Positions 1 through 16,373 of a DNA stretch of 64,000 bases are shown piece after piece (position 1 is the first letter of the stretch; every line of letters begins with the position of its first letter). Position numbers and translations under genes: made by a program. The notes beneath the pieces are model-generated. The model did not search any database and was not told the origin of the DNA. It saw nothing but the letters and a program-made list of their open reading frames with translations. The DNA lies in NCBI GenBank assembly GCA_965237905.1, contig OZ250172.1, positions 2,656,001 to 2,720,000 of the forward strand, given 5' to 3'. Source of the DNA: Nitrospinaceae bacterium. Its GTDB lineage: Bacteria; Nitrospinota; Nitrospinia; Nitrospinales; Nitrospinaceae.

Positions 1-328
1 GAAAATAAAGGATTATTTTAAGTCGATTCAAAAATCATATAATCAAAAAACGGCAAGGCATTATATGGTGCTCTTTAAGGACGGTTCATTCAGATTTATT
101 AGGCCAGGTTTTAGGGATCCGAAAATATATGTGACTATGACAACTCCTTTAATAAATCTTGATTTTTCCCGCCTTTAGATCAAGTTAAATCCTCTATGAT
201 CTATTCTTTTTTTGGCCTGATATTATGGGTTACTCCAAAACGAATCTTCTTTTAATCCAAGATAATCAAATCATACATGGTAGGCACATGTGCCACGAAT
301 CTTAGGAGATTAAATCAAACCTAACAAC

Positions 329-398
329 AGCTGGTCTGGTAGTAGTAGCTAGTCTGGTAGTAGTAGCTGGTCTGGTAGTGGTAGCTGGTCTGGTAGTA
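329..398. repeat. 18-bp tandem repeat, ~3.9 copies (AGCTGGTCTGGTAGTAGT)
   Basis: Units at 329-346, 347-364, 365-382 and partial 383-398, each with at most one mismatch; intergenic. Confidence 0.9.
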
Positions 399-625
399 CC
401 AAATGGTAAGGTAATAACATCCAGTTTGTTAGGAGTGGGAATACCTATTTTTACCCTTTTTGTCCTTTTAATTTAAATTACAAGTGGCACACGTTCCATT
501 GTTATATAATCTGGGTAATTATGCCCTCGTCGATGATAGCATTTAGAGCTGTTAGCAGAAAAGAGGTAATGGTCAAAGGCAGAAGGTCTAACTTTATGTA
601 GGGTGCAGCTTAAAGGGGCAGGTTA

Positions 626-1015
626 TTAGTTGCGATTATATTTTTTTATGATTCTTCTTACCCCGGTTTTAGTCCATCTTTTCCCCCTAATAGTTGGAAT
701 ACAAGCTTCGGCATCTAACCAATCAGCAATCCTCTCTAAGCTAAACTCTTTCTCCAATAATGGCTCCATTTCTTTCCATACTTTTTTTTGATACTCTTCC
801 GCTTTTTTAATTTTTGCTTTCCTTGCAGCAGAGGTATCTTTATTCCTGACTTGGTCTAGATTAGGGTTCCCTAGTTTGATCCCCCTTTTTTTCCTCTCTT
901 CTAAAGCAGCCTTGGTGCGCTGAGAGATTAATATTCGTTCTTCTTCCGACTTCCTAGCCATTCCGGTTAATACCCTATAAGGTAATTTATCAAATTTCTG
1001 GATACCCTTTAGCAC
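626..1015 (-). pseudogene. C-terminal half of a serine recombinase/resolvase (helix E plus DNA-binding region); catalytic domain absent
   Basis: EERILISQRTKAALEERKKRGIKLGNP matches the resolvase helix-E signature; SLERIADWL..IPTIRGKRWTKTGVRRI is a recombinase-type DNA-binding tail; no Y.R.S catalytic motif. Confidence 0.7.
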
Positions 1016-1104
1016 AATGATACCCCATGGATTATAAATTATACTGGGAAAACCAAAACCTCAGAAGGAAAATAAATTCTTAACCTTTTAGCACAATGAT
1101 ACCC
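1008..1104. repeat. Perfect 18-bp direct repeat TTTAGCACAATGATACCC (1008-1025, 1087-1104), each followed by TTATAAAT
   Basis: Read directly; lies at the 5' end of the resolvase remnant, upstream of the divergent Rep-like gene. Confidence 0.85.
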
Positions 1105-1176
1105 TTGATCTTATAAATATAATTAAGGGGTTTTCAGAGTTGAATTTTGGGTGTCACTAATCGAAAGGGTATTTGA

Positions 1177-1788
1177 ATGAATTATTCGGTATTAAAAAAC
1201 CCGGAAAAGAGGAGTTTTTTCCGCCGTCAAATGGAGGAAAGATCTGAAAAATGGTTTAGAAATTACACCAAAAACCCAAAGCATCTTCTCGCCAACATGT
1301 TGCGGGGCAAGAAGTTTGATTATTTTGTCACTCCAACATTGAAAGGCTTCCGAAAGCATAACTCTATCTGTCAAACGATGGATAAACAAGATCTAACCAG
1401 AGATCAGGTGGAGCGAGTTGTTGGGCATTTTAGAAATATCCTAAAGAAGAAATTATATGGTCGTGGTCCATTCCGTATAAATTTCGTTGCAATCATTCAT
1501 ATGGAAACTGACCACCCGAATGTTCATATATTGATGGGTGAGCCGGATCAAAATTCGAACTTTAAAGGAAATGTACCGTTTGAAGTACTTATTCGAGAAT
1601 GCTGGAATAAGATCAAAATAGCGGGAAAAATTATTGACGTTAAAAGGATTTGGGAAGATGAAGATTTGGATGGCTGTTTACTCTCTTCAGAAGAAACAGT
1701 TTTTTATTATATGATGAAGGAAATTAAAGCCTGGAATGGAAATTTGGATAACGTCTGCTTTCTGAGTATGAATTTAGTGGAAAACTGA
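1177..1788 (+). CDS. HUH-superfamily (rolling-circle Rep-like) endonuclease, putative
   Basis: Ordered motifs: I FVTPTL, II HPNVHILM (HUH-like, first His replaced by Asn), III YYMMKE (YxxK). Confidence 0.55.
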   Translation: MNYSVLKNPEKRSFFRRQMEERSEKWFRNYTKNPKHLLANMLRGKKFDYFVTPTLKGFRKHNSICQTMDKQDLTRDQVERVVGHFRNILKKKLYGRGPFRINFVAIIHMETDHPNVHILMGEPDQNSNFKGNVPFEVLIRECWNKIKIAGKIIDVKRIWEDEDLDGCLLSSEETVFYYMMKEIKAWNGNLDNVCFLSMNLVEN

Positions 1789-2105
1789 AACTGAGAACCT
1801 TTGTGTGCGATGCACCATTTGGAAACGGAGTTAAAGCTCCAAATTCTGGTTCCTTTAAATATTGGGTACGATTTGAAGAGTATTTAATAATGCTCTTGTT
1901 AAAATACCTACGTCTAAATTAGGTTCATAAGAACTACATTTCCCCAGTTTCCTAAATCACAAATCTCTAAAACCTTTTTAAATATATAAAACCACATGTT
2001 TCTTTTAATAATAATGAGTTAGAACAATTTGGACCTTGAGTTCTGAAAATAAATATTTTAATTTATTTAAAACCTAAGAATTTAAAAATATTTTTGAGGG
2101 TTAAA

Positions 2106-2702
2106 ATGGCCAAACAAGGTAAAGCTAAAGTTCTTAGTGAGCAGGAATTCAAGAGGGTGGTTCGTCATCAAATTACCGCAAAACATGGGCTCAGAAATGT
2201 TGCACTTTTGCACATCTCCTTTTATCTAGGCCTACGAGCCAAGGAAATGGCTTCCCTAAAAATTTGTGATGTCGTTGACTCCACCGGGAATTTAAAGGAG
2301 GAGCTTACCCTCACAAGAGAAATGACAAAGGGTAATCAAAGCAGAGCTATTTATCTCACAAATCCAAAAGTAAGAAAGGCCCTCCAGGAATACATTGAGC
2401 ATAGGAAAAATATCGAAGGAACCTATTTTCATGAAGCCTCATTATTTCGAAGTCAAATTTCAGGAAAGTTCTCTCCAAATACAATGCAACTGCTTTTCTC
2501 AAATATGTATAAAGACGTGGGCCTTGAGGGCGCATCAAGTCACAGTGGACGAAGAAGTTTCGCAACCAAGTTATTGGAGCAGGGTGTGAATATTAAATCG
2601 GTTCAAACTCTACTTGGTCATTCCAGTATCATGACCACATCCATTTACGTAGAGGACAATCCTTATTTATTGGCGAACATCTCACGGAATTTGAAAATAT
2701 GA
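2106..2702 (+). CDS. Short tyrosine recombinase/integrase (catalytic domain only, ~198 aa)
   Basis: GLRAKE (R), TKG (K), SHSGRR (HxxR), LLGH (H), TSIY (Y); GAGG before the ATG at 2106. Confidence 0.92.
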   Translation: MAKQGKAKVLSEQEFKRVVRHQITAKHGLRNVALLHISFYLGLRAKEMASLKICDVVDSTGNLKEELTLTREMTKGNQSRAIYLTNPKVRKALQEYIEHRKNIEGTYFHEASLFRSQISGKFSPNTMQLLFSNMYKDVGLEGASSHSGRRSFATKLLEQGVNIKSVQTLLGHSSIMTTSIYVEDNPYLLANISRNLKI

Positions 2703-2720
2703 TAATTTAATTAGGCCTAA

Positions 2721-2975
2721 ATGTATTGTGTCACAAAAACCTATGGTCATTATGTGAGAGATAGAATTGAACCCGCCCTCCATGACTGGTTGAGAACAAA
2801 AATAAAAGGAAACTATGAGATTAAGGAAAACGAACTTGATCCCAAAACAATGACTCGAACCATAACGGTTGGTTTTGAGGAAAAAAATGATTGTCAAAAA
2901 TTTTCACTTTTAAGAATACCAGTCGATTTATTCAAAGAGAAGTGGGGTTATGGAGAAATGGGGAGTTCATTATGA
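2721..2975 (+). CDS. Small hypothetical protein downstream of the integrase
   Basis: 84-aa ATG ORF starting 18 bp after the integrase stop; no recognisable motif. Confidence 0.45.
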   Translation: MYCVTKTYGHYVRDRIEPALHDWLRTKIKGNYEIKENELDPKTMTRTITVGFEEKNDCQKFSLLRIPVDLFKEKWGYGEMGSSL

Positions 2976-3078
2976 ACGAGTTTCTTAGCGACTATGCATT
3001 TGTGCCCGATCTTAACATTAACTCTGGGCCCGTGTTTAGGGGGAAGGTCAATACTAAAATAATTCAGACACCAAAGGC

Positions 3079-3561
3079 TTATGGTTTGCTTTCGTATGCC
3101 TCTTTGACCTTAGGGACTGCTTCCCTGACAGCAGAGAGGATTACCAGGCTATGACATAATAAAGGTTCACTCCGTTGGGGCGCGAACCAATAGTTGTTGA
3201 ATTTACCGCCATGGAAAAGATTATTGCGGATACGGCGAATATACAATAGAAGTTTTTCGGAAGGAGAATTTGTATTTGGTTCAGATATCTCCCAATCTAA
3301 TTTACCACCAATAATTACTTGTTTTTTTGGCGGATCAGCCAAAATAAACTTAATCGCTTCATCTAATTCTAAAGTGGTTGGATTAACGAATAGTTTTTTA
3401 ACTTCAGGTTTACGCGAAAACTTTGTCCAGTCTGCTTCGACAAAACCCCTAACAATTTTGTAATAAGGATTAACTTTTAAGGCATATTCGGTTCGGGAGA
3501 ATTCTTTAAAGAATCGAAATGCTAATTTATCAAGGTGTTGGTCTTGTGTCATTTCATGCAA
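3079..3561 (-). CDS. Stand-alone HEPN-domain protein (putative RNase)
   Basis: RNNLFH = HEPN Rx4H motif, in the context YIRRIRNNLFHGGK; N-terminal FSRTEYALK helix. Confidence 0.65.
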   Translation of the reverse strand: MHEMTQDQHLDKLAFRFFKEFSRTEYALKVNPYYKIVRGFVEADWTKFSRKPEVKKLFVNPTTLELDEAIKFILADPPKKQVIIGGKLDWEISEPNTNSPSEKLLLYIRRIRNNLFHGGKFNNYWFAPQRSEPLLCHSLVILSAVREAVPKVKEAYESKP

Positions 3562-3838
3562 TATGAATGAGGCTGGGGCGCATTTTTCATGTTAGGAGAA
3601 CCTCCCTAAACCTGAATTCCATATGTTATAGAAAATGGAAGTAATAATCTACTCCGTCTGATACCTTTTCCTGCCCATAATCCCCTACTTAATCATCCTA
3701 GGTTTTAGGTCCGAATCCTACCCTTACTTTTGGACCACTTTGCGGGGGGCAGGTCACAATTGCAAAACCACCTAAATCATGCTAACTCTATGTTTGTAAA
3801 AATATTACATCCAATATCTACATGTATTTTGGTGAAAT

Positions 3839-5119
3839 ATGAGAAGACTTGCTGTCCAAAAACGGGATGATGGATATTCCTCCAACAAAGACTATCAACA
3901 ATTTCACAGTAAGGTATCTCAACGTATAGTCCCGGGAGAAAAGGAAAATCGTATAGTATTTACCACAGAACTACAAAAATTGGATGTAAGTAGTGATTTT
4001 GTAGGATTTGGTGGATTTATTTTAGCAGAAGATCCGATCGTACTAAAACTGACTATCCAGATTGATTCTTATGAAGATTCGAAAGAGTTTCAAATTGGAA
4101 CAATTTGGAACCGAATTGGGATAGCTATACCAGCAACTAAAGATGAACGTGCAACTCTAATTATGGAATGGGAAAATGTTACAAGTATAAATGTATGGGG
4201 TTTTGATTTAGGTTATCTTAACCTTCCTGAAAGTATTAGAAATAAGAAACCGGATATTGATGTTCTTAATGAATCACATTTATGCCCTGAAACTTTTTAT
4301 CTACCAAATCAAAATGCAATAGACTTAGATATAGAGGAATCTTCATCTACCCATTTTTCGATTGTTAACGGGTCAGAGATAATATTAAAGAAATGTTCAT
4401 ATTGTCAAAGAATGTTGCCAGTTAATCCAGAATTGCTTGGATCGCTATCTTTCCATAAACATAACGCAAAATTAACTAAACACCAAAATGAATGTAGATC
4501 ATGTAAGAAATGGCGTATAAATAATAGTTTTAATCCTTTAAGAACCACCGATCAATTACATGAGTCATCTGTCATTACACGTGAGCGTAAGATTTTACTT
4601 AAGGAACCAAAGATTCTACAAGAAATAAAGGATAGAACAGGGGCTGGATTAAAATCTCAAATCTGGAAAAAATTTGGGCGCAAATGTTTTTTCTGTAATG
4701 AACCAATTGAGCTAGATGGATTTCAGCTAGACCACACACGACCACTTTCTTACTTATGGCCAATTGACGAACATGCCACCTGTTTGTGCCCTGAACACAA
4801 CAACCAAAAGAAAGATAAATTTCCTATCGAATTCTACACAGAAGATCAATTAAAATCTTTATCAGAAATAACTGGACTAAGTTATGAAGAGTTAACAATT
4901 AAAGATGTGAACCAAAAAGAATTAGATCGAATCATTTCTAATATATCTACTTTTGCAAAAGAATGGGACCCACGTACTTTTGCAGCAATTGCAAGAAAAA
5001 TAAAAGAGTTGAGAAAAAATACAGATCTCTTTATAATTTTAAATGAAGCTGACGAAGAGACATATACTGAATTAGTACAACAACTGGAAGACCGTCCAGA
5101 TCCTGTCGTAAATGAATAG
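3839..5119 (+). CDS. Zn-finger HNH endonuclease, probable restriction endonuclease
   Basis: CFFC..LDHTRP..CLCPEHNNQK HNH/Zn core, plus additional CSYC and CRSC pairs; convergent with the MTase gene. Confidence 0.8.
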   Translation: MRRLAVQKRDDGYSSNKDYQQFHSKVSQRIVPGEKENRIVFTTELQKLDVSSDFVGFGGFILAEDPIVLKLTIQIDSYEDSKEFQIGTIWNRIGIAIPATKDERATLIMEWENVTSINVWGFDLGYLNLPESIRNKKPDIDVLNESHLCPETFYLPNQNAIDLDIEESSSTHFSIVNGSEIILKKCSYCQRMLPVNPELLGSLSFHKHNAKLTKHQNECRSCKKWRINNSFNPLRTTDQLHESSVITRERKILLKEPKILQEIKDRTGAGLKSQIWKKFGRKCFFCNEPIELDGFQLDHTRPLSYLWPIDEHATCLCPEHNNQKKDKFPIEFYTEDQLKSLSEITGLSYEELTIKDVNQKELDRIISNISTFAKEWDPRTFAAIARKIKELRKNTDLFIILNEADEETYTELVQQLEDRPDPVVNE

Positions 5120-5124
5120 GTTTA

Positions 5125-7851
5125 TTATTTTGACGGTTTAAAAAATAATAGTGAATGTGTCGTCGTTAATCCTTTATCCTTTATCCCATGTTTAGCAACT
5201 GTCTGCACATTTTCAATCACTTCACCTTCTAGGGTGAAATATTCAAGAGCTATTGCTTTTAATTCATTAACCATGTCTTTTCTACCTCCGCCACCGAGGT
5301 GAAGAATTAGCAATCCATTCTTTTTTATCATACTCTTGCATAGTGAGAAGAATTCCCTATAAACAGAAATATTCTTTATTTGCTGCCTTTCCAAAAACTC
5401 TAAACTATCTTCTTTAAAATTGCTTTCACTCCAGCCACAAAACCAAAGTCTTAACCAATTAGGACGATCAAACCTCATACCATAAAATGGCGGTGATGTT
5501 ATTATTGCATCAAATTTATGATTGATATGGTTTTTTATATCTCTAAAGTCACCATGAATCCCTAACCCTTTTTGAAATTCTTTTGACAAGGGTTTTGATA
5601 AAGCTCTCTCGGCTCGTTCATATATTTTTTTGTATACATCTTTATATACTTTTGGACCCGAAGGAGAGAAGGGTGTTATAGGGTGTGATGTACATGATAG
5701 CGCATACGGTCTATTGCCATGTAAAACATGCAACAACGAGGCCCAAACAAAATTCTCGGAATCTGACCTTTGATCTAATTTCTTTTTAAGAAAGATCTTT
5801 CTAAGTTTTAGGATCTCCTTTAGTGTTTTTTTGTGGTAATAATCCTTAACCGATGAATTTAAACCAAATTCTGCAAAATTAAAATCATTTTTAGTAAGGT
5901 TGACTTTTGATGCTTCCTTTTGGAGTTTTTGAATGGATTTTCTAACGTTCGACAGAAATGGTGGACGTAACTTTGCCCGTCCTATTAAAGCCGCAAATGG
6001 ACTTTTATCATTGGTGACAACATTTACACCTTGCATAGCCCCCTCAAAAGGTATTGTTCCAACACCTCCTAGGGGATCTAAAAGACTTCCTCCTTTCGGG
6101 ACGAAATACTTAACAAGCCAATGAGACATTGATGGTTTTAGTTTGCCTTGATATGAACAAAGAGAATGTAGAGGATGACCCCAAGTTTTTTTTGAGTATG
6201 GTTGATTCTTGTAAGGTAATTCTCGCTGAAATTGCTTAATTCTTCCCCCTAAAGAGTCACATTTTTTGCTTAATGCTTTTATATGTCTTACGTTCTTGGG
6301 CTTCTCAAAGATTATTTCTGCTTGAACAAGCTCACTTTTATCCCGAGACATTCTTTTTGCTAATATATGTTCGTTTTTTACATTAAAACCAGCTTCTCTA
6401 GCAACATCAATAAGTAGCTTATTTGTAGGAACATGTACACCATAAAACTTAGAGTCTCCTATGTCTAAAACGAAATCACCGCCGGGTTTCATACTGTTAA
6501 AGACACCTTTAAATACTTCATACATATCAGAGAAATAATGACGAGCCATTGTGGGAATTCGTTTGTCTTTTGATTCTAAATCTAGTTGTTTTGCTATCTT
6601 TTCAACTTTTTTAAAATCAAAATAAGATTCTTTTTTCGAGACATCATTTATGCCTCCAGTCACAGTTAAATTTCGGTATCCCCTAAGTTCTTTTTCAGAT
6701 TTAATAAAACCTAAAAGCCAAAGCTCAATTTTTGTATTTCTAAAGTAATTTGTACCGTTCAAATAGGGTGGTGATGTCAGAACTAGATCAAAAGCATTTC
6801 TATACTCATCCGGAATTGATTTAGAGTCTGAGGACACTTTTTTTGTATAAGCTATATTCGTTGGTGAGGATTTAACATCTTGTACCATCCTTTTTACACT
6901 ATCGGATATTAAGCCTGAAACATTGACAACTCTATTTTTGTATTCATCTGGTCTTCTGCGACGTAAGTCAGCTCGTCTAGTCATGTTTGAACATGCAACT
7001 GCATTAGATGTACATGCCAGCATTAATATATTACAAGCATGTTGGTAACCGTCTGATATATCCTCCGCAATGCTTAATGCAGCAAGTAACTCTCGAATGT
7101 GCTTATCTTCAAAATAGTCTCTTTTAGGGAATGCCTCATAATATTGTTCAAGCGATACCCTTTTTCTTGCCTTTACCAAATTATTTTTATCTATAACCTT
7201 TAAATATTCAGTTGCTATCGAATTAAACTTATTCCAATTCTTTTTTGCCCATCTTACAGATAAAATCTTTGTCTCAGCAACAAAGGACATAAACGGATTT
7301 AGCTCAGAGTAAAATGATTGAATCCCTAACATTGAAGCAGCTAGTTGTACGGTTCCTGATCCACCAAAAGGATCATATATGGTTTGGGGTCTAAGGCGGT
7401 TTCTAAGAATACTGTCTCTTGCATATGTTGCGGAGAATCCTTCTACATACGGGTACCACCCATATATACCTTGTCTTAAACTATCTTGGAATGTCAAACC
7501 AACTGATGTTTCACCTTCGTTTGTGATTTGCATATCAACAGTTCCAAAATCGAAAGACATTTGACCATTTCCATTTTTGCGTCCGTTGTTAAATCCTTTT
7601 TTTAATATAGAGACACAAATATTACTAAGACTTCTACTTTCCTCATGAGCCTTTGCTTCTAAATCTTCAACAATTGGATCGCCTAAAGCTAATCGAAAAT
7701 CACGACTATTAAGTCCTCTAAGATATGTAATAAATTCTTTGGTTATCCCATCTCTAGGCTTAGCCGGTAAGCTAATGTTGACCCTAGCGGATTTGCCAAT
7801 ACGAACACGTTCCTTAGGGAAATAAATGGTTTTGAATATATATTCTGGCAT
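5125..7851 (-). CDS. Fused double DNA amino-methyltransferase (two m4C-type domains) with putative N-terminal RHH domain
   Basis: Domain 1 DPFGGSGT...TSPPY; domain 2 DPLGGVGT...TSPPF; first ATG at 7851. Confidence 0.85.
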   Translation of the reverse strand: MPEYIFKTIYFPKERVRIGKSARVNISLPAKPRDGITKEFITYLRGLNSRDFRLALGDPIVEDLEAKAHEESRSLSNICVSILKKGFNNGRKNGNGQMSFDFGTVDMQITNEGETSVGLTFQDSLRQGIYGWYPYVEGFSATYARDSILRNRLRPQTIYDPFGGSGTVQLAASMLGIQSFYSELNPFMSFVAETKILSVRWAKKNWNKFNSIATEYLKVIDKNNLVKARKRVSLEQYYEAFPKRDYFEDKHIRELLAALSIAEDISDGYQHACNILMLACTSNAVACSNMTRRADLRRRRPDEYKNRVVNVSGLISDSVKRMVQDVKSSPTNIAYTKKVSSDSKSIPDEYRNAFDLVLTSPPYLNGTNYFRNTKIELWLLGFIKSEKELRGYRNLTVTGGINDVSKKESYFDFKKVEKIAKQLDLESKDKRIPTMARHYFSDMYEVFKGVFNSMKPGGDFVLDIGDSKFYGVHVPTNKLLIDVAREAGFNVKNEHILAKRMSRDKSELVQAEIIFEKPKNVRHIKALSKKCDSLGGRIKQFQRELPYKNQPYSKKTWGHPLHSLCSYQGKLKPSMSHWLVKYFVPKGGSLLDPLGGVGTIPFEGAMQGVNVVTNDKSPFAALIGRAKLRPPFLSNVRKSIQKLQKEASKVNLTKNDFNFAEFGLNSSVKDYYHKKTLKEILKLRKIFLKKKLDQRSDSENFVWASLLHVLHGNRPYALSCTSHPITPFSPSGPKVYKDVYKKIYERAERALSKPLSKEFQKGLGIHGDFRDIKNHINHKFDAIITSPPFYGMRFDRPNWLRLWFCGWSESNFKEDSLEFLERQQIKNISVYREFFSLCKSMIKKNGLLILHLGGGGRKDMVNELKAIALEYFTLEGEVIENVQTVAKHGIKDKGLTTTHSLLFFKPSK

Positions 7852-8049
7852 TAGGAAGTTCTCTATCACAATTATTGTGATATTATAAATTATCAACTTC
7901 AAATTCACGACAGAAATTTACGAAACCCTCTTAATTCATGAAATTTGTGTCTGTCAATAAATATGGGTTTGGCGGCCTCCGGGGCCTAAAAGCATTAAGT
8001 CCAGCCAATTTCCCCGTCTAAAACCCTGTTATCACCTTTTAAAAATGAA

Positions 8050-8083
8050 AACGGCGACCCCAACTAATAAGGTGGTCGCCGTT
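8050..8083 (-). terminator. Hairpin AACGGCGACC/GGTCGCCGTT, T-rich on the minus strand, downstream of the tRNA fragment
   Basis: Perfect 10-bp inverted repeat at 8050-8059 and 8074-8083. Confidence 0.6.
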
Positions 8084-8112
8084 AACTTATTGCCCCTAAA
8101 GGGCTTATTTGA

Positions 8113-8156
8113 TGGGCCATCACGGGATCGAACCGTGGACCTACTAGTTAAGAGCT
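8113..8156 (-). other. 3' half of a tRNA-Lys(CTT) gene, att-site-like remnant
   Basis: Minus strand AGCTCTTAACTAGTAGGTCCACGGTTCGATCCCGTGATGGCCCA: anticodon loop CT-CTT-AA, T-arm CACGG-TTCGATC-CCGTG, acceptor 3' strand; no D-arm or 5' acceptor strand upstream. Confidence 0.8.
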
Positions 8157-8245
8157 CTAACTTTGTTAATTTTGGATGGACTTTAGAAATACTGATTGTG
8201 TATCAGATGGTTGTATTTTTTTTCTTTCTTAACCTCATTGACATA

Positions 8246-9652
8246 TTACGCCAAAAGTGATTTTGCTTCTTCAGATTTTTGTTTTAGGTAATTATGTAGT
8301 TCCTTCAAGAGTTTCAACTCGTTTCCATCAGATTGCTCTATCAATTCTTCTGTTTGATTGATGGCTTGAGGTAAGGTCAACCAGGGAACTTTTCCATCAG
8401 CCTCCAAAACCCTTCTAGCGAAAGACTTATCAAGTTTTAGACGATTATTTTTTGATAAAACTTCTGGTTTTTCAGAATAAATTAAACGCATACCAAGTTT
8501 TTTTAGTCTTTTGTCTTTTATCTTGCTTAGATGGTATTCTCGATCGGCCCAATCAATTTTATGAAAAGTTTCCATTTGATCCTGATCTTCCCAAGAAGGG
8601 AAGCTATCATAAATTTGATCTTCAACATGGTCGGAGGGTTCTTTTATTTTACGAGTACCCATAAATATTGAAATTAACTTATCTTTTAATTTTGTGTTTC
8701 CATGTAAATATTTGGCCCTACGTTCTAATTCTTTCCTATCTAACTCATAGGACTTCATGTAATCAGGCGCATCATCCAAAGATAAAATTATTGGAGAAGA
8801 GTTTGTCTTTAGTATTCGAATAGGTTTTGGTTGAGAAAGTATTTTTTCCTCTAATTCATCTTCGCTCAAATCCTCAAGATCCTTCGGGTCTACTGATAGA
8901 TTAAAAACTAGCATATCTGTATTCATAGAAGGATTCAAACCTATCCCCGTTACAACCCAAGAGATTCCTTTCCTCCGAAAGAACTCTGAAAAAATAAACA
9001 GAGATTCTTCTTTAATGAATTCAATCACAGCAGCTTTATTTCCGAATTGCATAAAATTTGACCAAATATTTGGGGCGTGCTCAGAGGCTAATCTGCATAA
9101 GTGAAGGGTGGCTTCAGCATCCGCCATCGCCTCATGTGCTCCTTCATGACTAAAACCGTTTGCAGGGGCTAGTTGATCTAGTTTGAAAATACTATTCCCT
9201 TTTGCATCAGTTGGGATATTTAGAGCGTTAAGGGAAAAAATACTTATCGCTTGAACTATTTTCATACTATCAGAACGACAATTATTGTTTGTGTTTGTGA
9301 GATATGGTGGATGCAGTGTTTTGTATAAAGCTTGACGCAATAGATGTTCATCAAAACCCAAAGAATTATGGCCAATAAAAACAGATGGCGACCAAGCCAT
9401 AAGCTTTTCGCGAATAGACAGTAACATTTCGTAATGAGAAGGCAAAGATGGATCGGTAAATTGCTGAACCGAAATTTTTGTAACTTTAATTGCACCAGGA
9501 GACGGTACTACATAGGGAAGCAAGCGTGAGCGGCACTCAAATCTATCTATCTCATTAAGATCTGCATCAGTCTTGATTGCGGCAAATTGTAAGATTTGGT
9601 CAAACGAAGTATTTGTTCCAGTAGTTTCAGTATCGTAGAAAACAAAGGCCAT
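8246..9652 (-). CDS. sbcB: Exonuclease I (SbcB)-like DEDDh 3'-5' ssDNA exonuclease
   Basis: YDTETTG (ExoI), HNSLGFD (ExoII), AHEAMAD (ExoIII), C-terminal VEDQIYDSF and DKRL motifs; ~468 aa; GGAGG RBS. Confidence 0.85.
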   Translation of the reverse strand: MAFVFYDTETTGTNTSFDQILQFAAIKTDADLNEIDRFECRSRLLPYVVPSPGAIKVTKISVQQFTDPSLPSHYEMLLSIREKLMAWSPSVFIGHNSLGFDEHLLRQALYKTLHPPYLTNTNNNCRSDSMKIVQAISIFSLNALNIPTDAKGNSIFKLDQLAPANGFSHEGAHEAMADAEATLHLCRLASEHAPNIWSNFMQFGNKAAVIEFIKEESLFIFSEFFRRKGISWVVTGIGLNPSMNTDMLVFNLSVDPKDLEDLSEDELEEKILSQPKPIRILKTNSSPIILSLDDAPDYMKSYELDRKELERRAKYLHGNTKLKDKLISIFMGTRKIKEPSDHVEDQIYDSFPSWEDQDQMETFHKIDWADREYHLSKIKDKRLKKLGMRLIYSEKPEVLSKNNRLKLDKSFARRVLEADGKVPWLTLPQAINQTEELIEQSDGNELKLLKELHNYLKQKSEEAKSLLA

Positions 9653-9672
9653 AAAAACCTCCAAAAGATACT

Positions 9673-10188
9673 TTAACCTAATAAATTTCCCAAACGAAAG
9701 CGCATAGCCGATTTGCTAACCTTAAATTGGATAGCAAGTTTGTTTAATTCTTCATCCTTATCAATATCGATACCTTTTCCGCCAAGAGCTTCTTCAATAA
9801 ATTTTTTAGGCATTAGAAGTTCTGCGGCAAAAGAATTAGCTTGTATCTCTATTCCATTTATTCCCGCAGAAGATATTGAATCTCGCATAAGCATAGGAAA
9901 TTCTTTATCAACATGTATTCCGTCGGAAATTTCATTTTTGTGAAAAATCAAATGACCAATTTCATGTGAAATTGTAAATCTTTGCCTATTAGGGTGATGT
10001 AATGAATTTACTCCTATAATTGGGCAACCATTTTTAAAGAAAATCATTCCTGAAATTTCATCGTCTAGAGGAGAATATCGCAGTTTTGCTCCTAGCTTTT
10101 TTGCAATGCGATCAACAGGAACAGGACCATAAACCACATTATATTCATCTAACAATTGTTTAGCACGATTTTCGAATTTTGTGGCCAT
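9673..10188 (-). CDS. ImmA/IrrE-family Zn metallopeptidase (CapP-like)
   Basis: QRFTISHEIGH (HExxH), EIQANSFAAELLMP; follows the XRE gene, divergent from CBASS. Confidence 0.88.
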   Translation of the reverse strand: MATKFENRAKQLLDEYNVVYGPVPVDRIAKKLGAKLRYSPLDDEISGMIFFKNGCPIIGVNSLHHPNRQRFTISHEIGHLIFHKNEISDGIHVDKEFPMLMRDSISSAGINGIEIQANSFAAELLMPKKFIEEALGGKGIDIDKDEELNKLAIQFKVSKSAMRFRLGNLLG

Positions 10189-10226
10189 ATTACTCTCCTT
10201 ATACATGCTTAAGACTCAATTGCACC

Positions 10227-10556
10227 TTAAGCATCTCTAATAATTTTAAATATTGCCTGCTTCTGTTCTTCTGTTAAATCTTCGTCCTTATGCAATCGAA
10301 AGGAAGACACTGAGGATTTTGATGGTGTAAATTTTTCTATGGGGGGTAAGAGCTTGTCCAATGAATCAAGATTTAACACTTGAGCAATGCAATAAAGGCG
10401 GTGGGTCAATACATGCTGTCTCCCGGCTTCAATATTTGCTAAAGATGCCCGAGAAATTCCAATTTGATCAGCAAGTTGACCTTGTGTAATGTCCTCACTT
10501 TTACGAATTTTTTTTATTTTTTGTCCAACGAGGAGTGAAAATTTGTCAGGTTCCAT
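10227..10556 (-). CDS. XRE-family HTH repressor (CapH-like)
   Basis: IRKSEDITQGQLADQIGISRASLANIEAGRQ; divergent from the CBASS operon. Confidence 0.88.
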   Translation of the reverse strand: MEPDKFSLLVGQKIKKIRKSEDITQGQLADQIGISRASLANIEAGRQHVLTHRLYCIAQVLNLDSLDKLLPPIEKFTPSKSSVSSFRLHKDEDLTEEQKQAIFKIIRDA

Positions 10557-10561
10557 AACTC

Positions 10562-10666
10562 CTTATACTAGTAAACACAGGATATGTCAAGCAAGCAAAC
10601 AATTTGTTTGGGATACAAACATATATATTTTTTTTATATTGACATCTGGCAGCAGATTGATATGCT
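10562..10666. promoter_or_regulatory. Divergent promoter region with candidate operator palindrome CAAACAA-T-TTGTTTG (10596-10610)
   Basis: Rightward TTGACA 10639-10644 with TGnTATGCT (-10 at 10661-10666); leftward TTGACA 10590-10585 with TATAAG after 17 bp; palindrome lies between them. Confidence 0.55.
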
Positions 10667-10753
10667 CACAGATAAGTAATGGCACCACGTTTCTCGGAAT
10701 CAGCTATTTATCCTGGTTGATCCGACCTGAATCCAAAATAGGAGGCAATAATC

Positions 10754-11767
10754 TTGAAGGAAGGGGTAGAAGAAACTGGACATCCGAAGCGGCGTATCCT
10801 ATGCATCGATGGGGGCGGCATCCTCGGTACATTCCCTGCGGCCTTTTTGGCCGAACTGGAGCAGCATCTCGAACACCCGATCGGTTCGTACTTCGACCTG
10901 ATTGCGGGAACATCTACAGGCGGCATCCTCGGGATTGCCCTGTCCTTGGGTCTTCCCGCATCCGAAATTCTTGACCTTTACGAAAAACGAGGTCCAGAGA
11001 TTTTCGGCCAGGATCATGGTGCGCTTATAAGTTTGATTTTAAGGAAAATTCGCGGTTTCCGGCAGCTATACAGACGCAAATATGATTCCGATGCGCTTCG
11101 TTCCGTTCTAAAGGAAGTTTTGGGTACCAGGCGTATTGGTGAAGCTCGGACCCGACTGGTTGTTCCGGCTTGGAACCCAGTGGCTCAATCAGTTTACATT
11201 TATAAGACCGCACATCACCATCGCCTGAAAACAGATTACCGATCGTTCGCCGTCGATGCTGCACTCGCCACGTCTGCAGCGCCGACCTATTTCCAGCATC
11301 ACATCACGCAAAACGATGTTGGATTGCTTGACGGGGGAATCTGGGCGAATAACCCGATCGCCATAGCCGTAGTGGAGGCCATTGCCGTTTTGGGTTGGCC
11401 TCGGGAATCATTGCAAATTTTAAGCCTTAGCTGTTTGGATGAAGCCTACTCAATCCCGAAATGGGTGGGAGTTGGCACACTCGGATTGAAAATCCGCAAT
11501 CTATTTATGGACGGCCAGTCGAAAGGCGCTATGGGCATCGCCAAGCTACTCACAGGCCATGAACATGAACGCAAAGCCATTTACCGGATCAGCCACACAA
11601 TCCCATATAACGCCTTCAAGATGGATGACACGCGTGTGATTCAGGACCTGAAAGGTCTCGGGCATACCATGGCTCGTGATAGGAACCCTGTTCTGGAACC
11701 CGTATTTTTTGACAAACCGGCGAAAGAGTTCACGCCGATTTACCAACTTAATGAGGAATCGCAATGA
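10754..11767 (+). CDS. capV: CBASS patatin-like phospholipase effector (CapV-like)
   Basis: DGGGILG, GTSTG nucleophile elbow, DGG; overlaps the CD-NTase start (ATGA); GGAGG before the TTG start. Confidence 0.88.
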   Translation: MKEGVEETGHPKRRILCIDGGGILGTFPAAFLAELEQHLEHPIGSYFDLIAGTSTGGILGIALSLGLPASEILDLYEKRGPEIFGQDHGALISLILRKIRGFRQLYRRKYDSDALRSVLKEVLGTRRIGEARTRLVVPAWNPVAQSVYIYKTAHHHRLKTDYRSFAVDAALATSAAPTYFQHHITQNDVGLLDGGIWANNPIAIAVVEAIAVLGWPRESLQILSLSCLDEAYSIPKWVGVGTLGLKIRNLFMDGQSKGAMGIAKLLTGHEHERKAIYRISHTIPYNAFKMDDTRVIQDLKGLGHTMARDRNPVLEPVFFDKPAKEFTPIYQLNEESQ

Positions 11768-12963
11768 CAATTGACACAGAAAAATACAACAGATTTTTGG
11801 ATAGCGTTGCGGAAGAAATTGATATACCGCCGAGCAAATATCAGGATGCGGTTGAGCGCTACCAGTCCGTCGGAAAGTGGCTGGAGGCAGGTGAGTACTT
11901 AGAATCTTCCGGCAAGCCAAGCATTTACCCGCAAGGCTCTTTTCGCCTGGGAACGGTGGCCAGGCCTATAAGGGGCGGCGTCGAGGCAAGCTATGACATT
12001 GATCTTGTATGTGAGTTGCCGATCGAAAAAAAACGGACCGACCCGTATTCGATCAAGACTATGGTCGGTGATCGCTTACGCGAGCACGGCACATATCGCA
12101 AATTGCTTGACAAGGAAGGTAAGCGATGCTGGACGCTCGAATACGCCGAAGAGGATGAGGTTGGCTTTCATCTGGACGTTCTGCCATCCGTCCCGGATCA
12201 AAAGGGTCTTCTAGATACCTCTATTGCCATCACCAATAAACAAGCAGGAGTCTACGATTGGTCTTCGAGCGATCCGAATGGCTTTGGGCTCTGGTTTGAT
12301 CGCCAGAATCGGGCGGCGTTCGAGGTCGCCCTGATCGAACAAAAGCGATCCATTCAGGAGCGGATGCCCAATCTTTATGGGAAAGTTGACGACGTTCCAG
12401 ACCAACTCGTCCGCACGCCCCTCCAAAGGTCGATTCAGCTCATGAAACGTCACCGTGATGTGAAGTTTAATGACGCACAGTATAATGGTTACGCGCCGAT
12501 CTCGATCATCATTACGACCTTGGCTGCGCAGTTTTATCAGGATGAGCCGGATACCTTTTCGGCGCTGACCAGAATTATCGACCAACTCCATGAGCATGCG
12601 GTTCTTGTTGAAAATGGGACCGTGAACAAAGCTCTCGCGCCCTTCAGTCCTATTAAACGCACGTCTGACGGAAAGTGGTACATAGGCAATCCGGTCAATT
12701 CAGATGAGAATTTCGCCGACCGCTGGCACGAGGATAAACATGCACGTGCGAGGGCCTTTTTCTCTTGGGTGGCTGCCTTAAAGGAGGACCTCATAAACAT
12801 TTTGGCTGAAACACGTCCTGATGTCATGCGCAAACGACTTACCGCTGTGCTTGGTGCGGCTGTTGTGTCTGGTCATCTCGACCTGATCTCACCAGCCCAG
12901 GCCGCCGTGGTCAGTGCCCCAAGTATTCATATCTCGGGAGCAGCTAAACCCTGGAGGGCATGA
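11764..12963 (+). CDS. CBASS CD-NTase (cGAS/DncV-like nucleotidyltransferase)
   Basis: QGSFRLGT..P...YDIDL, HLDVLP, QLMKRHRD, PISIIITTL, NPVNSDENFADRW; C-terminus KPWRA. Confidence 0.92.
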   Translation: MTIDTEKYNRFLDSVAEEIDIPPSKYQDAVERYQSVGKWLEAGEYLESSGKPSIYPQGSFRLGTVARPIRGGVEASYDIDLVCELPIEKKRTDPYSIKTMVGDRLREHGTYRKLLDKEGKRCWTLEYAEEDEVGFHLDVLPSVPDQKGLLDTSIAITNKQAGVYDWSSSDPNGFGLWFDRQNRAAFEVALIEQKRSIQERMPNLYGKVDDVPDQLVRTPLQRSIQLMKRHRDVKFNDAQYNGYAPISIIITTLAAQFYQDEPDTFSALTRIIDQLHEHAVLVENGTVNKALAPFSPIKRTSDGKWYIGNPVNSDENFADRWHEDKHARARAFFSWVAALKEDLINILAETRPDVMRKRLTAVLGAAVVSGHLDLISPAQAAVVSAPSIHISGAAKPWRA

Positions 12964-13713
12964 GTGAAGGAAGAACTCTCCGCCCAAATCGCCGAGCTAC
13001 AGACGGTTCATACGGGTCTGACAAAAATCGCGGAGAAGGATAACGAAACTGTCGTTTCCGGACCGTTGCCGTTCAAGGCATCGGCTGACGGGCTTAGCCC
13101 AATTACCGAATGCTTTGAGATAGAATTAATCATCCCCAATAAATACCCGAAGATCCTGCCGCGTGTTAGGGAAACCGGTGGGAAAGTCGACGGCGATTAT
13201 GACCACCTCTATAAGGATGGAACGCTCTGTCTAGCTGTCCCGATCGAGGAGCGCAGGAGATTTGGAGAACAACCCACCCTTCTAGGTTTTATAAACAAAC
13301 TGGTAATTCCCTATTTTTTTGGCTACTACTACTGGGAAAAAAACGGCAAATATCCTTTCGACGAGCAAGCCCATGGCCCCGATGGGATTGTCCGGCATTA
13401 TATGGATTCCCTCCATCTACCGGATGAAATCTCAGCTCTGGCTGTCGTTTCCTACCTTCTTGAGTATGGCTATCGCGGTCATCATTTATGTCCTTGTGGA
13501 AGCAGCGAAAAGGTTCGAAATTGCCATGGCAAAGCATTACACGACCTACATGAACAGCACAATGAAATCACTTTAAAAAATGATTTCTTGTCGGCGCTGG
13601 ATGTCTGCATCAACAAAGTAAAAGAGGACAAACTTAAAATTCCTGAATCCCTTAAAAGACAGGTTCTTCGAATTTACAATAAGATCAAAAACAAAATCTT
13701 CGATGTTGACTAA
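12964..13713 (+). CDS. Prokaryotic E2 (UBC-like) protein with C-terminal SEC-C Zn motif; CBASS ancillary protein
   Basis: IELIIPNKYPKILPRV...HLYKDGTLCL resembles the UBC active-site region with catalytic Cys; CPCGSSEKVRNCH is SEC-C; abuts the CD-NTase stop. Confidence 0.78.
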   Translation: MKEELSAQIAELQTVHTGLTKIAEKDNETVVSGPLPFKASADGLSPITECFEIELIIPNKYPKILPRVRETGGKVDGDYDHLYKDGTLCLAVPIEERRRFGEQPTLLGFINKLVIPYFFGYYYWEKNGKYPFDEQAHGPDGIVRHYMDSLHLPDEISALAVVSYLLEYGYRGHHLCPCGSSEKVRNCHGKALHDLHEQHNEITLKNDFLSALDVCINKVKEDKLKIPESLKRQVLRIYNKIKNKIFDVD

Positions 13714-13756
13714 CAGAGTTGGGTCTTATAATTAATAATATATAATATAATAATTT

Positions 13757-13954
13757 ATGGCCATCTTCATCCCCCACAGATGCCCGATATGCTTCGAGAG
13801 CGTGACGCTGATACTGCCGCAGCATAAGGGTGGTGCGTTTAAGGGTACAGCGAAGGGGCAGTGTTTAAATTGCATGGATGAGCAGGAACACGATTTAACT
13901 GTCCCCGCCAATAGGAAAGATTTAATCAAAGTCAAAGGACCAGAACGGCAGTAA
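13757..13954 (+). CDS. Small Zn-ribbon-like protein
   Basis: 65 aa with CPIC...CLNC. Confidence 0.45.
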   Translation: MAIFIPHRCPICFESVTLILPQHKGGAFKGTAKGQCLNCMDEQEHDLTVPANRKDLIKVKGPERQ

Positions 13955-14062
13955 CCGCGATCAGGAGAATTTTAGAGAGGACCAATCACCCAAAGCAGAC
14001 GTTCGCCTAACGGCTTCGACCGGCAGGAACCGGCCATAAGCGGACATTTACCCATATGCGGA

Positions 14063-14347
14063 TTATTCATCAATAAATTCATTTGCTGGAGATTTGATAA
14101 AATCACTACTCAATGGGAAATATGCTCGTAGACCTCCATCATCTATGCATCCGTGAACTCTAATATCACCATCAGGTTTATCGTCCCAATGAGTGATGAT
14201 TTCAATATGGTATTTCTTACCATCTTTTGATGTTACTTCCCTGGTAACAGGTTCTTTTTCGATATTCTTTTGTAAATCTTGATGAGAAATAGGACGGAAT
14301 AATTCTAATTCATTTTCAAGTAATTTAATTGCTTCTTGTTTATCCAT
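14063..14347 (-). CDS. Hypothetical protein (AT-rich cassette gene)
   Basis: 94-aa ATG ORF with protein-like composition (WDDKPDGDIRV...DDGG); no function assigned. Confidence 0.6.
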   Translation of the reverse strand: MDKQEAIKLLENELELFRPISHQDLQKNIEKEPVTREVTSKDGKKYHIEIITHWDDKPDGDIRVHGCIDDGGLRAYFPLSSDFIKSPANEFIDE

Positions 14348-14505
14348 AAGTTTTTCAATTTCCGCTTTAGGTCGTTTTCAGATTAAGTAATATTTCGGCC
14401 ACAAGCGGACACTTGCCCAAGCACAAGAAACCCCGCTCTAGTCGGGGCCTCATCTTGGTCCTCGGTTCTTCTTGTTATGCGCTGAGTCGAGGGGAAGGGC
14501 GGACC

Positions 14506-14994
14506 TTATCTGGACCTGTGCGCTTCCAGCTCGATCTCGATCATGAACCCGGGCAGGGCGAGCCCTTTGACCTCGAGCCAGGTTCCGGTCGGAAACTGCT
14601 TTGTGTAGATCGAGTTACGATACGAAGCGACCTCGAGAAACTTCGCCATGTTGGTCGTATAGACGTTCTCAACTATCACGTCGTCGAAGGTATAGCCGTA
14701 GTGCTTCAGAACCTTATCCAGATCGGAGTAAGCGTTTTTCATCTGCTGCTCCAAATCGCCGACAGCTGTCGGGTTGCCCTCATCATCCATGCTCACGGCG
14801 CCCGAGATCTTGATGTCATCACCGATCTTCACGGCATGCGTGTAGCCGTAGGCCTTTTCGACCTCCGGTCGCAAAAGGAAATACTCCGGCATTTCTTTCG
14901 CCAGCACGATCGTCTCGTCGGATTCCGGGCCGGGGCAGCCGGACAGGAAAGCCAGGAAGAGTGTTGCAAGGACGAGCAGTGATTTTTTGTTCAT
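14506..14994 (-). CDS. RidA/YjgF family protein with lipoprotein signal peptide
   Basis: YTHAVKIGD..ISG, FPTGTWLEVKGLALPGFMIEIELEA; N-terminal MNKK..FLSGC; GAGGAG RBS. Confidence 0.82.
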   Translation of the reverse strand: MNKKSLLVLATLFLAFLSGCPGPESDETIVLAKEMPEYFLLRPEVEKAYGYTHAVKIGDDIKISGAVSMDDEGNPTAVGDLEQQMKNAYSDLDKVLKHYGYTFDDVIVENVYTTNMAKFLEVASYRNSIYTKQFPTGTWLEVKGLALPGFMIEIELEAHRSR

Positions 14995-15160
14995 TGTTTT
15001 TCTCCTCAGATTTGTCAAACGGCCGCTTTGGGTCGTTTGCGGGCTAACGATCAGCGCGATCGAACGTCCGCTTTCCGTGCTAACTGTTATGACTCATCGT
15101 CTGTCCACAATAGGATTTCTTCTTCAAAAATCCCCCACCCGCTCCACCAACTCCGGTTGG

Positions 15161-15613
15161 TCATTCAACCGGACACCACCCCACCCTTGCTCCGCCGTGA
15201 TACTCCCTACCAAGTCCCTGCTGGATGATCTTCTCTGCCAGATTGTCCCCGCTGGTCAGCTTCACGTCCGCCACTACTCGACCGGCGTACTTCCCATGCT
15301 TGACGTTTGCCAGTAGCACCACCTCACCCAAGATCAGCCCTTTCACGAAGTCGCGTGCTTCAATGGCCTTCTGTTTCTCAGATTCACACTTTCCACGGAT
15401 TTCAGGAGTATCCACGCCATTAACCCGGACGCTGGCCTTTGCTTCCAGACCGGGCCACGGGTAGGCTTCCACCGTGAACGTGTCGCCGTCATAGACCTTT
15501 ATGACCTTGGCGGACACCGGGCCAGTAATGGCGGGATCAGCCCATGAGGTAACGGGGGCCAGGAGAAGGCATACGGCAAGAATCAGGATCGGGATTTTGT
15601 TCGGAGTATCCAT
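15161..15613 (-). CDS. Secreted thermonuclease (SNase) family protein
   Basis: VYDGDT, VRVNGVDTPE, KYAGRVVA; signal peptide. Confidence 0.85.
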   Translation of the reverse strand: MDTPNKIPILILAVCLLLAPVTSWADPAITGPVSAKVIKVYDGDTFTVEAYPWPGLEAKASVRVNGVDTPEIRGKCESEKQKAIEARDFVKGLILGEVVLLANVKHGKYAGRVVADVKLTSGDNLAEKIIQQGLGREYHGGARVGWCPVE

Positions 15614-15719
15614 ACCCGAAACTATACACCGATTGGTGATTATTCGGACACCATAAAAAGGCCAGCAGAGAGAGCCGTTTTCTGGTTGAATATACCTTTA
15701 ATTTAATACTATATAATAT

Positions 15720-16373
15720 TATGATGTTGTGCCCGCCCGCCGCGGCAATCTCCAGCGCGCGCTTCACGTGGAGCTGGCCTTTGACATCGGTGAAGTCGAT
15801 TTCGTACAGCGCTTCACGGAAAAAATCCTCACCCGTTTTTGTCGGCAGGGGATCGATCATCGACTCGCCGTTCAGGAACGCAACGGCCTGCGGCAGGTTG
15901 CTCACCGGATAGACGTTAAGACCCTCCACCACGGCGGCCTCCGCCGCATTTTCAACCGGGAGCAAAAGACCGGCAAGACCCTTCGCCTTGGCCTCCACGG
16001 CGATGGAGAGCGCACCCTTGATCGGTTTCACCCGTCCGTCCAGCGACAACTCGCCGAGGATCATGTAGTTTTCCAAGTCGTCTTTGCGGAGCACGTGGTT
16101 GGCGGCGCAGATGCCGAGGGCGATGGGCAGATCGAACGCCGAGCCTTCCTTCTTGATGTTGGCCGGGGCGAGGTTGACGGTGATGCGCTTGACCGGCAGA
16201 TCGAGATTGGTGTTCTTGATGGCGGCCATCACGCGGTCGCTCGACTCCTTCACCGCCGCGTCGGGCAGGCCGACGATGGAAAAGTTGGGCACGCCGGGCG
16301 CCAGGTTCACCTCGACCTCGACGAGGTAACCCTCGATGCCCAATACCGCTCCGCTCAATACCCGCGCGACCAT
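15720..16373 (-). pseudogene. comM: comM/yifB (Mg-chelatase-like AAA+ ATPase), 5' fragment interrupted by the island
   Basis: VGLPDAAVKES, ITVNLAPA..KEGSAFDLPIA, GELSLDG, DVKGQ..KRALEIAAAGGHN, then divergence before the expected GPPGSGK; reads through into the island to a stop at 15537. Confidence 0.9.

Follow-up and report, generated by a model that had tools for sequence, protein, structure and literature searches.

Two gene cassettes between 30-bp sites of two spacer classes in a Nitrospinaceae genome, probably recombined by a family of short tyrosine recombinases encoded elsewhere

In a Nitrospinaceae chromosome, comM (YifB) is interrupted by an 18.4-kb element whose right end carries an array of two gene cassettes. 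The element occupies positions 2653303-2671720 of the host genome (G000, a single contig of 3.09 Mb), corresponding to positions 1-15720 of the window, by which we mean the whole stretch of 64,000 bp that was analysed (G000:C1:2656001-2720000); comM is intact in genomes G008 and G001. The element encodes a large serine recombinase of 575 aa just before the window and a short tyrosine recombinase at 2106-2702, followed by a type II methyltransferase-like gene of 927 aa at 5125-7908, which has exonuclease, IrrE-like and HTH genes as neighbours, and by a CBASS operon at 10754-13713 with a patatin phospholipase effector, a CD-NTase and an E2 protein; the array itself is part of what the element carries as cargo.

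Both cassette genes lie on the minus strand. The first (14063-14347) encodes a 94-aa protein that matches no Pfam, NCBIfam or PADLOC family, and the second (14506-14994) encodes a 162-aa protein of the RidA/YjgF family, apparently with an N-terminal lipoprotein-like signal. Their interiors differ clearly in GC content, 33% for cassette 1 and 54% for cassette 2, so the contrast between two co-oriented genes that a preliminary description of this DNA had pointed out is real. That description also reported that both genes are bracketed by the same ends, and we found these motifs as it had given them, with 15 of 16 bases identical between 14031-14046 and 14396-14411 on the left and again 15 of 16 between 14362-14377 and 15023-15038 on the right. 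Such ends are in fact the inner arm plus the 6-bp spacer of a longer site of 30 bp. Four of these sites, all read on the plus strand, delimit the two cassettes: A1 (14019-14048, spacer CGGCCA at 14031-14036) and B1 (14357-14386, spacer AGGTCG at 14369-14374) around cassette 1, and A2 (14384-14413, spacer CGGCCA at 14396-14401) and B2 (15018-15047, spacer GGGTCG at 15030-15035) as the left and right boundaries of the RidA unit. In each of them the arm facing the cargo scores well (13-18 bits), and the outer one, which faces the platform in A1 and B2, scores poorly (-4 to -10 bits). Since every site of the window combines a strong arm with a strongly degenerate one (-4 to -13 bits), the copies here may be inactive or work in one direction only. 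A1 and A2 together form a 24-bp direct repeat with 88% identity.

The pair of cassettes had also been described as enclosed by an outer inverted repeat. The sequence is present (13992-14005 versus 15061-15074, 13 of 14 bases), but it does not mark the boundary of a unit or a separate pair of ends, as each arm is offset outwards from the nearest inner arm by exactly 45 bp and the same 45-bp doublet recurs at unrelated loci, where it accounts for 11 of the 14 tandem arm pairs of the phylum loci. On the left, the element at 13974-14003 (minus strand) consists of an arm at 13992-14003 and a B-like spacer, TCACCC, at 13986-13991, lacks a second arm and lies 45 bp outside A1; doublets of this type are present likewise in G014, G002 and G008. 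On the right, the element at 15063-15092 (plus strand) has its arm at 15063-15074, 45 bp outside B2, and its doublet is shared with G004, G006, G009, G029 and G052. We infer that both are accessory or vestigial half-sites.

The site consensus is AATGTCCGCTTT-N6-AAAGCGGACATT, a 30-bp arm-spacer-arm layout of the kind found in loxP or dif. Species genomes were scanned with the left 18 bases only, leaving the next 12 free, and this search returned at least 132 loci, 52 of the 132 having short flanks and serving only for the logo. Among them, the free 12 bases settle on a consensus reverse-complementary to the left arm, and information drops to zero beyond 30 bp. Moreover, arms are paired across a 6-bp spacer in 177 cases, while any other length from 3 to 11 gives at most 11 and shuffled loci give none. 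Therefore, the reverse-complementary right arm and the pairing count at 6 bp define the site as arm(12)-spacer(6)-arm(12). The tyrosine-recombinase geometry recognized earlier in the form CCGCTT-8-AAGCGG is this same 12-6-12 site.

Spacers fall into two classes: A, which reads CGGCCA to the left of the cargo (TGGCCG on the other strand), and B, which reads GGGTCG to its right. Behind 92 strong arms in the phylum loci we counted GGGTCG 34 times, TGGCCG 30 times and intermediates 6 times; in sphingomonads GGGTGG stands in for the class A spacer, and other taxa have a class with the spacer GTGCCA. Neighbouring A and B sites at least 100 bp apart are co-polar in 63 of 66 pairs, and the usual layout, the array of the window included, is A-cargo-B, a short linker and again A-cargo-B. 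The largest array has 14 sites within 4.9 kb (L045).

We compared the abundance of these motifs with chance. In the window, the enrichment of the 12-mer arm pattern is marginal, with 8 matches against 2.8 expected and 8 reached in 2 of 100 shuffles. In the complete host genome, an 18-bp profile gives 23 matches at 18 bits or more against about 2 expected under a 4th-order Markov background, an excess that is inflated because the profile was seeded from 21 of these matches. They form about eight clusters, mostly facing inwards around one to three genes. The exact 18-mer occurs in 58 of 120 genomes of the phylum, many of which are incomplete MAGs, and a reversed control pattern in 2 of 120, once in each. 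Sites are also found in Alpha-, Beta- and Gammaproteobacteria, Bacteroidota and others (at least 132 loci).

Relatives of the host differ in what lies between the sites, and comparison of these alleles shows cargo gained, lost and swapped there. G004 (contig C138) has the same platform without cassette 1: the outer arm of A1 is joined to the inner arm of A2, and from the diagnostic bases (14030/14395 and 14037/14402) the join must fall within the six bases of the A spacer. The same junction appeared in two of three marine metagenome runs from separate studies, as a joint in X6 and as a loose end in X1. This mapped A x A event takes out cassette 1 with its B site and the linker. The RidA cassette gene, for its part, has copies with 99-100% identity in G004, in G007 and at G000:245994. 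In metagenomes X5 and X6 the RidA unit assembles as exactly 14396-15035, from the first base of the A spacer to the last base of the B spacer, and in G007 the cassette is 99.5% identical from 14396 on, with different outer arms on both sides. A check proposed earlier, whether the homology of this cassette in other genomes ends at the sites, was thus run, and in G007, X5 and X6 it does. A second copy in the host (G000:C1:245894-246523, 99% identical) keeps the B site and lacks the A site, and its homology ends at about 14409-14413, at the inner edge of the arm and not in the spacer, which counts against such boundaries.

Cargo also varies at constant platforms. In metagenome contigs, position 14048 is followed by many different cargos. 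The platform before proS holds four unrelated cargos in G000, G008, G004 and G010, all of one genus; when G008 and G004 are compared with G000 at this locus, the 60-bp flanks show 83-90% identity beyond the sites and 30-42% within them, and another locus in G008 and G006 shows a like change. A site-free copy in G004 (contig C28) of the 473-aa cargo of the proS locus speaks against exchange at the sites. A homolog (79%) of the cassette 1 protein in a gammaproteobacterial MAG has a B site 9 bp before its ATG, as in the window; of the two cassette 1 homologs, L363 has merely a faint upstream remnant of a site and L362 lacks an A site downstream. No circle junction was seen in four metagenome runs, which were available as contigs and therefore say little on this point.

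We asked how the two spacer classes could be used. The preliminary description had envisaged a circle formed by joining the A end of a cassette to its B end at a shared GG, and this was not supported, as the rearrangement observed is A x A and the hybrid spacer that such a join predicts (AGGCCA/GGGCCA) stands behind none of the 92 strong arms of the phylum loci, GGGCCA-type spacers being found only in other taxa. A broader form of this model keeps the same sites and enzyme family and would let A and B recombine through heterologous or strand-biased chemistry, the two spacers being fixed left and right integration products; end joining of this kind is known from the coupling sequences of conjugative transposons. 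Cargo flanked by one A and one B (24 pairs) is far commoner than other arrangements containing A, the strong arms point towards the cargo, both spacers delimit the unit, and A and B share four of six bases in inverted register with a few intermediates in existence, all of which would fit such a chemistry. We nonetheless consider it unlikely, since the single mapped event removed cassette 1 with its B site and linker, and B-B and A-A neighbours are common. Recombination between sites with like spacers is the reading that we prefer.

A further possibility is that the motifs are MITE-like ends of non-autonomous transposons, or simply repeats that serve homology-dependent deletion or transformation. 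At many host sites an IS-like terminal repeat (GTGTCTCAGTT) does lie 8-9 bp further out, with flanks resembling target duplications, and the 24-bp repeat of A1 and A2 could delete by slippage. This explanation is, in our judgement, very unlikely: it would leave aside the symmetric 12-6-12 geometry with discrete spacer classes, the outer arms and flanks that stay constant while the cargo changes, and the recombinase family that the sites hug, and the array of the window has no IS-like repeat. Moreover, an IS256-type transposase (PF00872), the type to which we presume the IS-like ends belong, was not found in G000. We also considered terminal repeats with a target duplication around the RidA unit and discarded them, the flanks being conserved outer arms and not duplications. 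An apparent 8-9-bp target duplication at the 242-kb/G007 locus reflects one shared insertion spot and is not independent evidence.

The same IS-like repeat gives several platforms of the host the look of mini-transposons, in tandem at 242-248 kb; copies near sites lie on G000:C1 at 242024, 245089, 246552, 247605, 248181, 559212, 561991, 663008, 848078 and 1360317. At L018, L057, L073, L079 and L088, what we take to be IS ends appear to start directly after the GGGTCG spacer, which suggests that several IS families target these sites. The platform of the window adjoins other genes in G004. As platform contexts differ in this way (comM island, G004, IS-like edges), platforms seem to travel by other means while the cargo changes at the sites.

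Co-occurrence with tyrosine recombinases of about 200 aa, which the preliminary description had proposed to scan for, was examined. The expectation was borne out for a family of about 208 aa, different from the recombinase named there (2106-2702). At L032, a locus selected by its motif, a short recombinase of this family is bracketed by inverted sites. Among 78 further family loci, a count that leaves out the locus of the query itself (L163), a full site was present in 26 and a site within 300 bp in 19, with none in shuffles; the other 52 have no full site by the profile used, many of the positives come from one sphingomonad clade near the query, and kin among the loci are not independent. Half-sites were found in 22 of 77 downstream and 25 of 76 upstream windows versus 55 of 2123 distant control windows. 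In the reverse direction, only one of the 80 loci that were selected by motif and have flanks contains an intact family recombinase, so the enzyme is not adjacent to most arrays. Within the order of the host, G021 has the 208-aa gene intact, followed by an A site 27 bp past its stop, G057 has a family gene with an upstream B half-site, and in G029 and G072 C-terminal fragments of the recombinase adjoin sites, G029 also having the right-end doublet of the window. Across the phylum, 5 of 120 genomes match the family (2 at full length) as compared with the 58 that have the exact site.

Residues R59, K87, H156, R159, H182 and Y191 are invariant in the family, for which 18 hand-picked rows were aligned and a profile was built from 64 of 79 matches. 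The predicted fold is the catalytic domain of a tyrosine recombinase with no core-binding domain (pLDDT 75; best matches XerA, XerH and Cre), and together with the R-K-H-R-H-Y residues this predicted structure identifies the family as tyrosine recombinases. The family reaches no NCBIfam cut-off. Family members are present on 406 plasmid records, enterobacterial ones included, and among the 30 matches listed the plasmid copies are labelled only as integrase or recombinase, or unannotated. The datasets of PMC8138268 might place the family in a subgroup. We also noted that in one clade (L193, L207, L209, L212, L227, L236) the stop codon of the recombinase overlaps the site, which has an apparent 7-bp spacer, and that other recombinase loci have a terminator-like hairpin in place of the gene-side arm.

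A six-frame search of G000 did not find a family recombinase, and the array of the window is therefore an orphan. The best match of that search (47 bits) was the protein at 2106-2702, the candidate catalyst of the preliminary description, and we weighed whether it, or XerC and XerD, both encoded in G000, could act on the sites. The 2106-2702 protein is another catalytic-domain-only tyrosine recombinase (198 aa), the closest relative in G000 of the site-linked family at 25% identity, with the same short architecture and on the same island as the array, and 356 bp before it, at 1750, there is an arm-like 12-mer. Yet this 12-mer has no class spacer and is inside an ORF, none of 6 loci with homologs of the protein (5.7-20 kb each) has a full site, and homologs at E<=1e-25 occur in 4 of 120 phylum genomes and in none of the 10 further genomes from the genus, each of which has sites. 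No arms above 9 bits were found near XerD or two other integrases. Action of either enzyme on these sites in G000 is thus most improbable, and the family supplied from elsewhere is the better candidate.

Known cassette systems were considered for comparison. No IntI match (TIGR02249) exceeded the cut-off in G000, and the site-linked family reaches 21 bits against a cut-off of 265. The cores of attC read RYYYAAC...GTTRRRY, and no attC pair surrounds either cassette: 13900-15200 has RYYYAAC only at 14005 and 15163, and GTTRRRY is absent on the plus strand, which covers the minus strand too. Hairpin folding gave z = +0.1 to -1.7 at three ends and -2.5/-2.0 only at the junction of B1 and A2, where two inverted arms meet; a hairpin model as for attC was set aside as less likely, the folding being weak and unremarkable. 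As in integrons and CALINs, arrays have one- or two-gene cassettes with little non-coding DNA and exist as orphans without the enzyme, and the platform-side arms are degenerate, like attI. In contrast to integrons, the sites are fixed at 30 bp with two per cassette, and the enzyme has no core-binding domain.

Invertases of the FimB/FimE type share the size of about 200 aa and the catalytic domain alone, but the family scores 21 bits against their cut-off of 222, and gain, loss and exchange in co-polar arrays differ from one invertible promoter. Engineered cassette exchange (RMCE) with heterospecific lox or FRT sites flanks the cargo with two non-cross-reacting spacer variants; here the arrangement is natural and the spacers would be non-cross-reacting by inference. 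Shufflons (Rci/sfx) also combine several short sites with one tyrosine recombinase, and we take the GTGCCA spacer of other taxa to resemble the sfx core. According to PMC8138268, Rci is an enzyme of the IntP2 subgroup that reshuffles pilin segments, unlike the whole unrelated genes exchanged between genomes here. In-place inversion of the shufflon or FimBE kind was rejected, relatives differing by presence, absence and replacement, 63 of 66 pairs being co-polar and the cognate gene being absent from G000.

The closest parallel is with dif modules. The dif consensus is asymmetric, with distinct XerC and XerD arms, whereas here both arms follow one palindromic consensus; the enzyme linked to the sites is, moreover, a family of about 208 aa far below the Xer cut-offs. 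In pdif modules of Acinetobacter plasmids, as PMC9455709 describes them, diverse genes lie between short core sites of tyrosine recombinases, identical modules appear in different contexts and move by recombination, cointegration and resolution, IS-like ends adjoin the sites, and the host enzymes XerC/XerD target them. The likeness includes arm-6 bp-arm core sites flanking genes, IS-like ends near sites and a RidA unit identical in different contexts, and the difference includes chromosomal arrays in several phyla with two fixed spacer classes. The earlier proposal of a cassette system distinct from both attC integrons and dif modules is supported by the lack of IntI and attC cores and by the single consensus of both arms. 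The system, which operates as dif modules do and has a mobile enzyme of its own, is neither an integron nor a dif module. A literature search in which subscription papers were mostly out of reach found no published description of it. A structured RNA search of 1-25000 gave one sub-threshold Rfam match outside the array, and no tRNA was found in the window or in seven loci; a structured RNA and a tRNA-linked island were both rejected.

Comparison among genomes, which gives the site geometry, two spacer classes, a crossover in the A spacer, boundaries from spacer to spacer, differing platform cargo and linkage to a recombinase, points to two cassettes that lie between 30-bp sites of two classes and are probably recombined by the family of about 208 aa absent from G000. 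The small enzyme would be supplied in trans and act on double-stranded DNA, binding the two arms as a tetramer, and would recombine only sites whose 6-bp spacers match. In direct orientation, recombination of A with A or of B with B would release a circle or insert one; if both took place between two platforms, their cargo would be exchanged, as in a natural form of recombinase-mediated cassette exchange. The gene for the recombinase, itself flanked by sites, may pass through genomes transiently and leave orphan arrays behind, which may then travel inside other elements, here the 18.4-kb comM island.

On balance we lean towards a wider reading, in which this would be a third general gene-cassette system of Gram-negative bacteria, made of a self-mobile catalytic-domain-only recombinase and two heterospecific 30-bp sites that carry out natural cassette exchange, with orphan platforms in about half of the phylum genomes reloaded as the enzyme passes. 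If so, a very common unannotated repeat and an equally unannotated, very common "integrase" would be explained as one system of gene traffic, outside the reach of scanners designed for integrons and dif. The cassette 1 gene is shared across phyla together with its site. The locus contributes naturally occurring alleles that place the crossover in the spacer, along with a view of orphan arrays across the phylum; with the states before and after the event narrowing the crossover down to 6 bp, the mechanism can be tested directly. Natural 30-bp sites that do not cross-react, together with a recombinase of 208 aa, would moreover make a compact tool for engineering.

A 65-aa ORF with two CxxC motifs lies immediately outside the array (13757-13954, plus strand). 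It matches no PADLOC family. Besides this one, G000 contains five copies or fragments, of which four lie at cassette loci; many look-alikes are present in the genus, and look-alikes are very deep in marine metagenomes.
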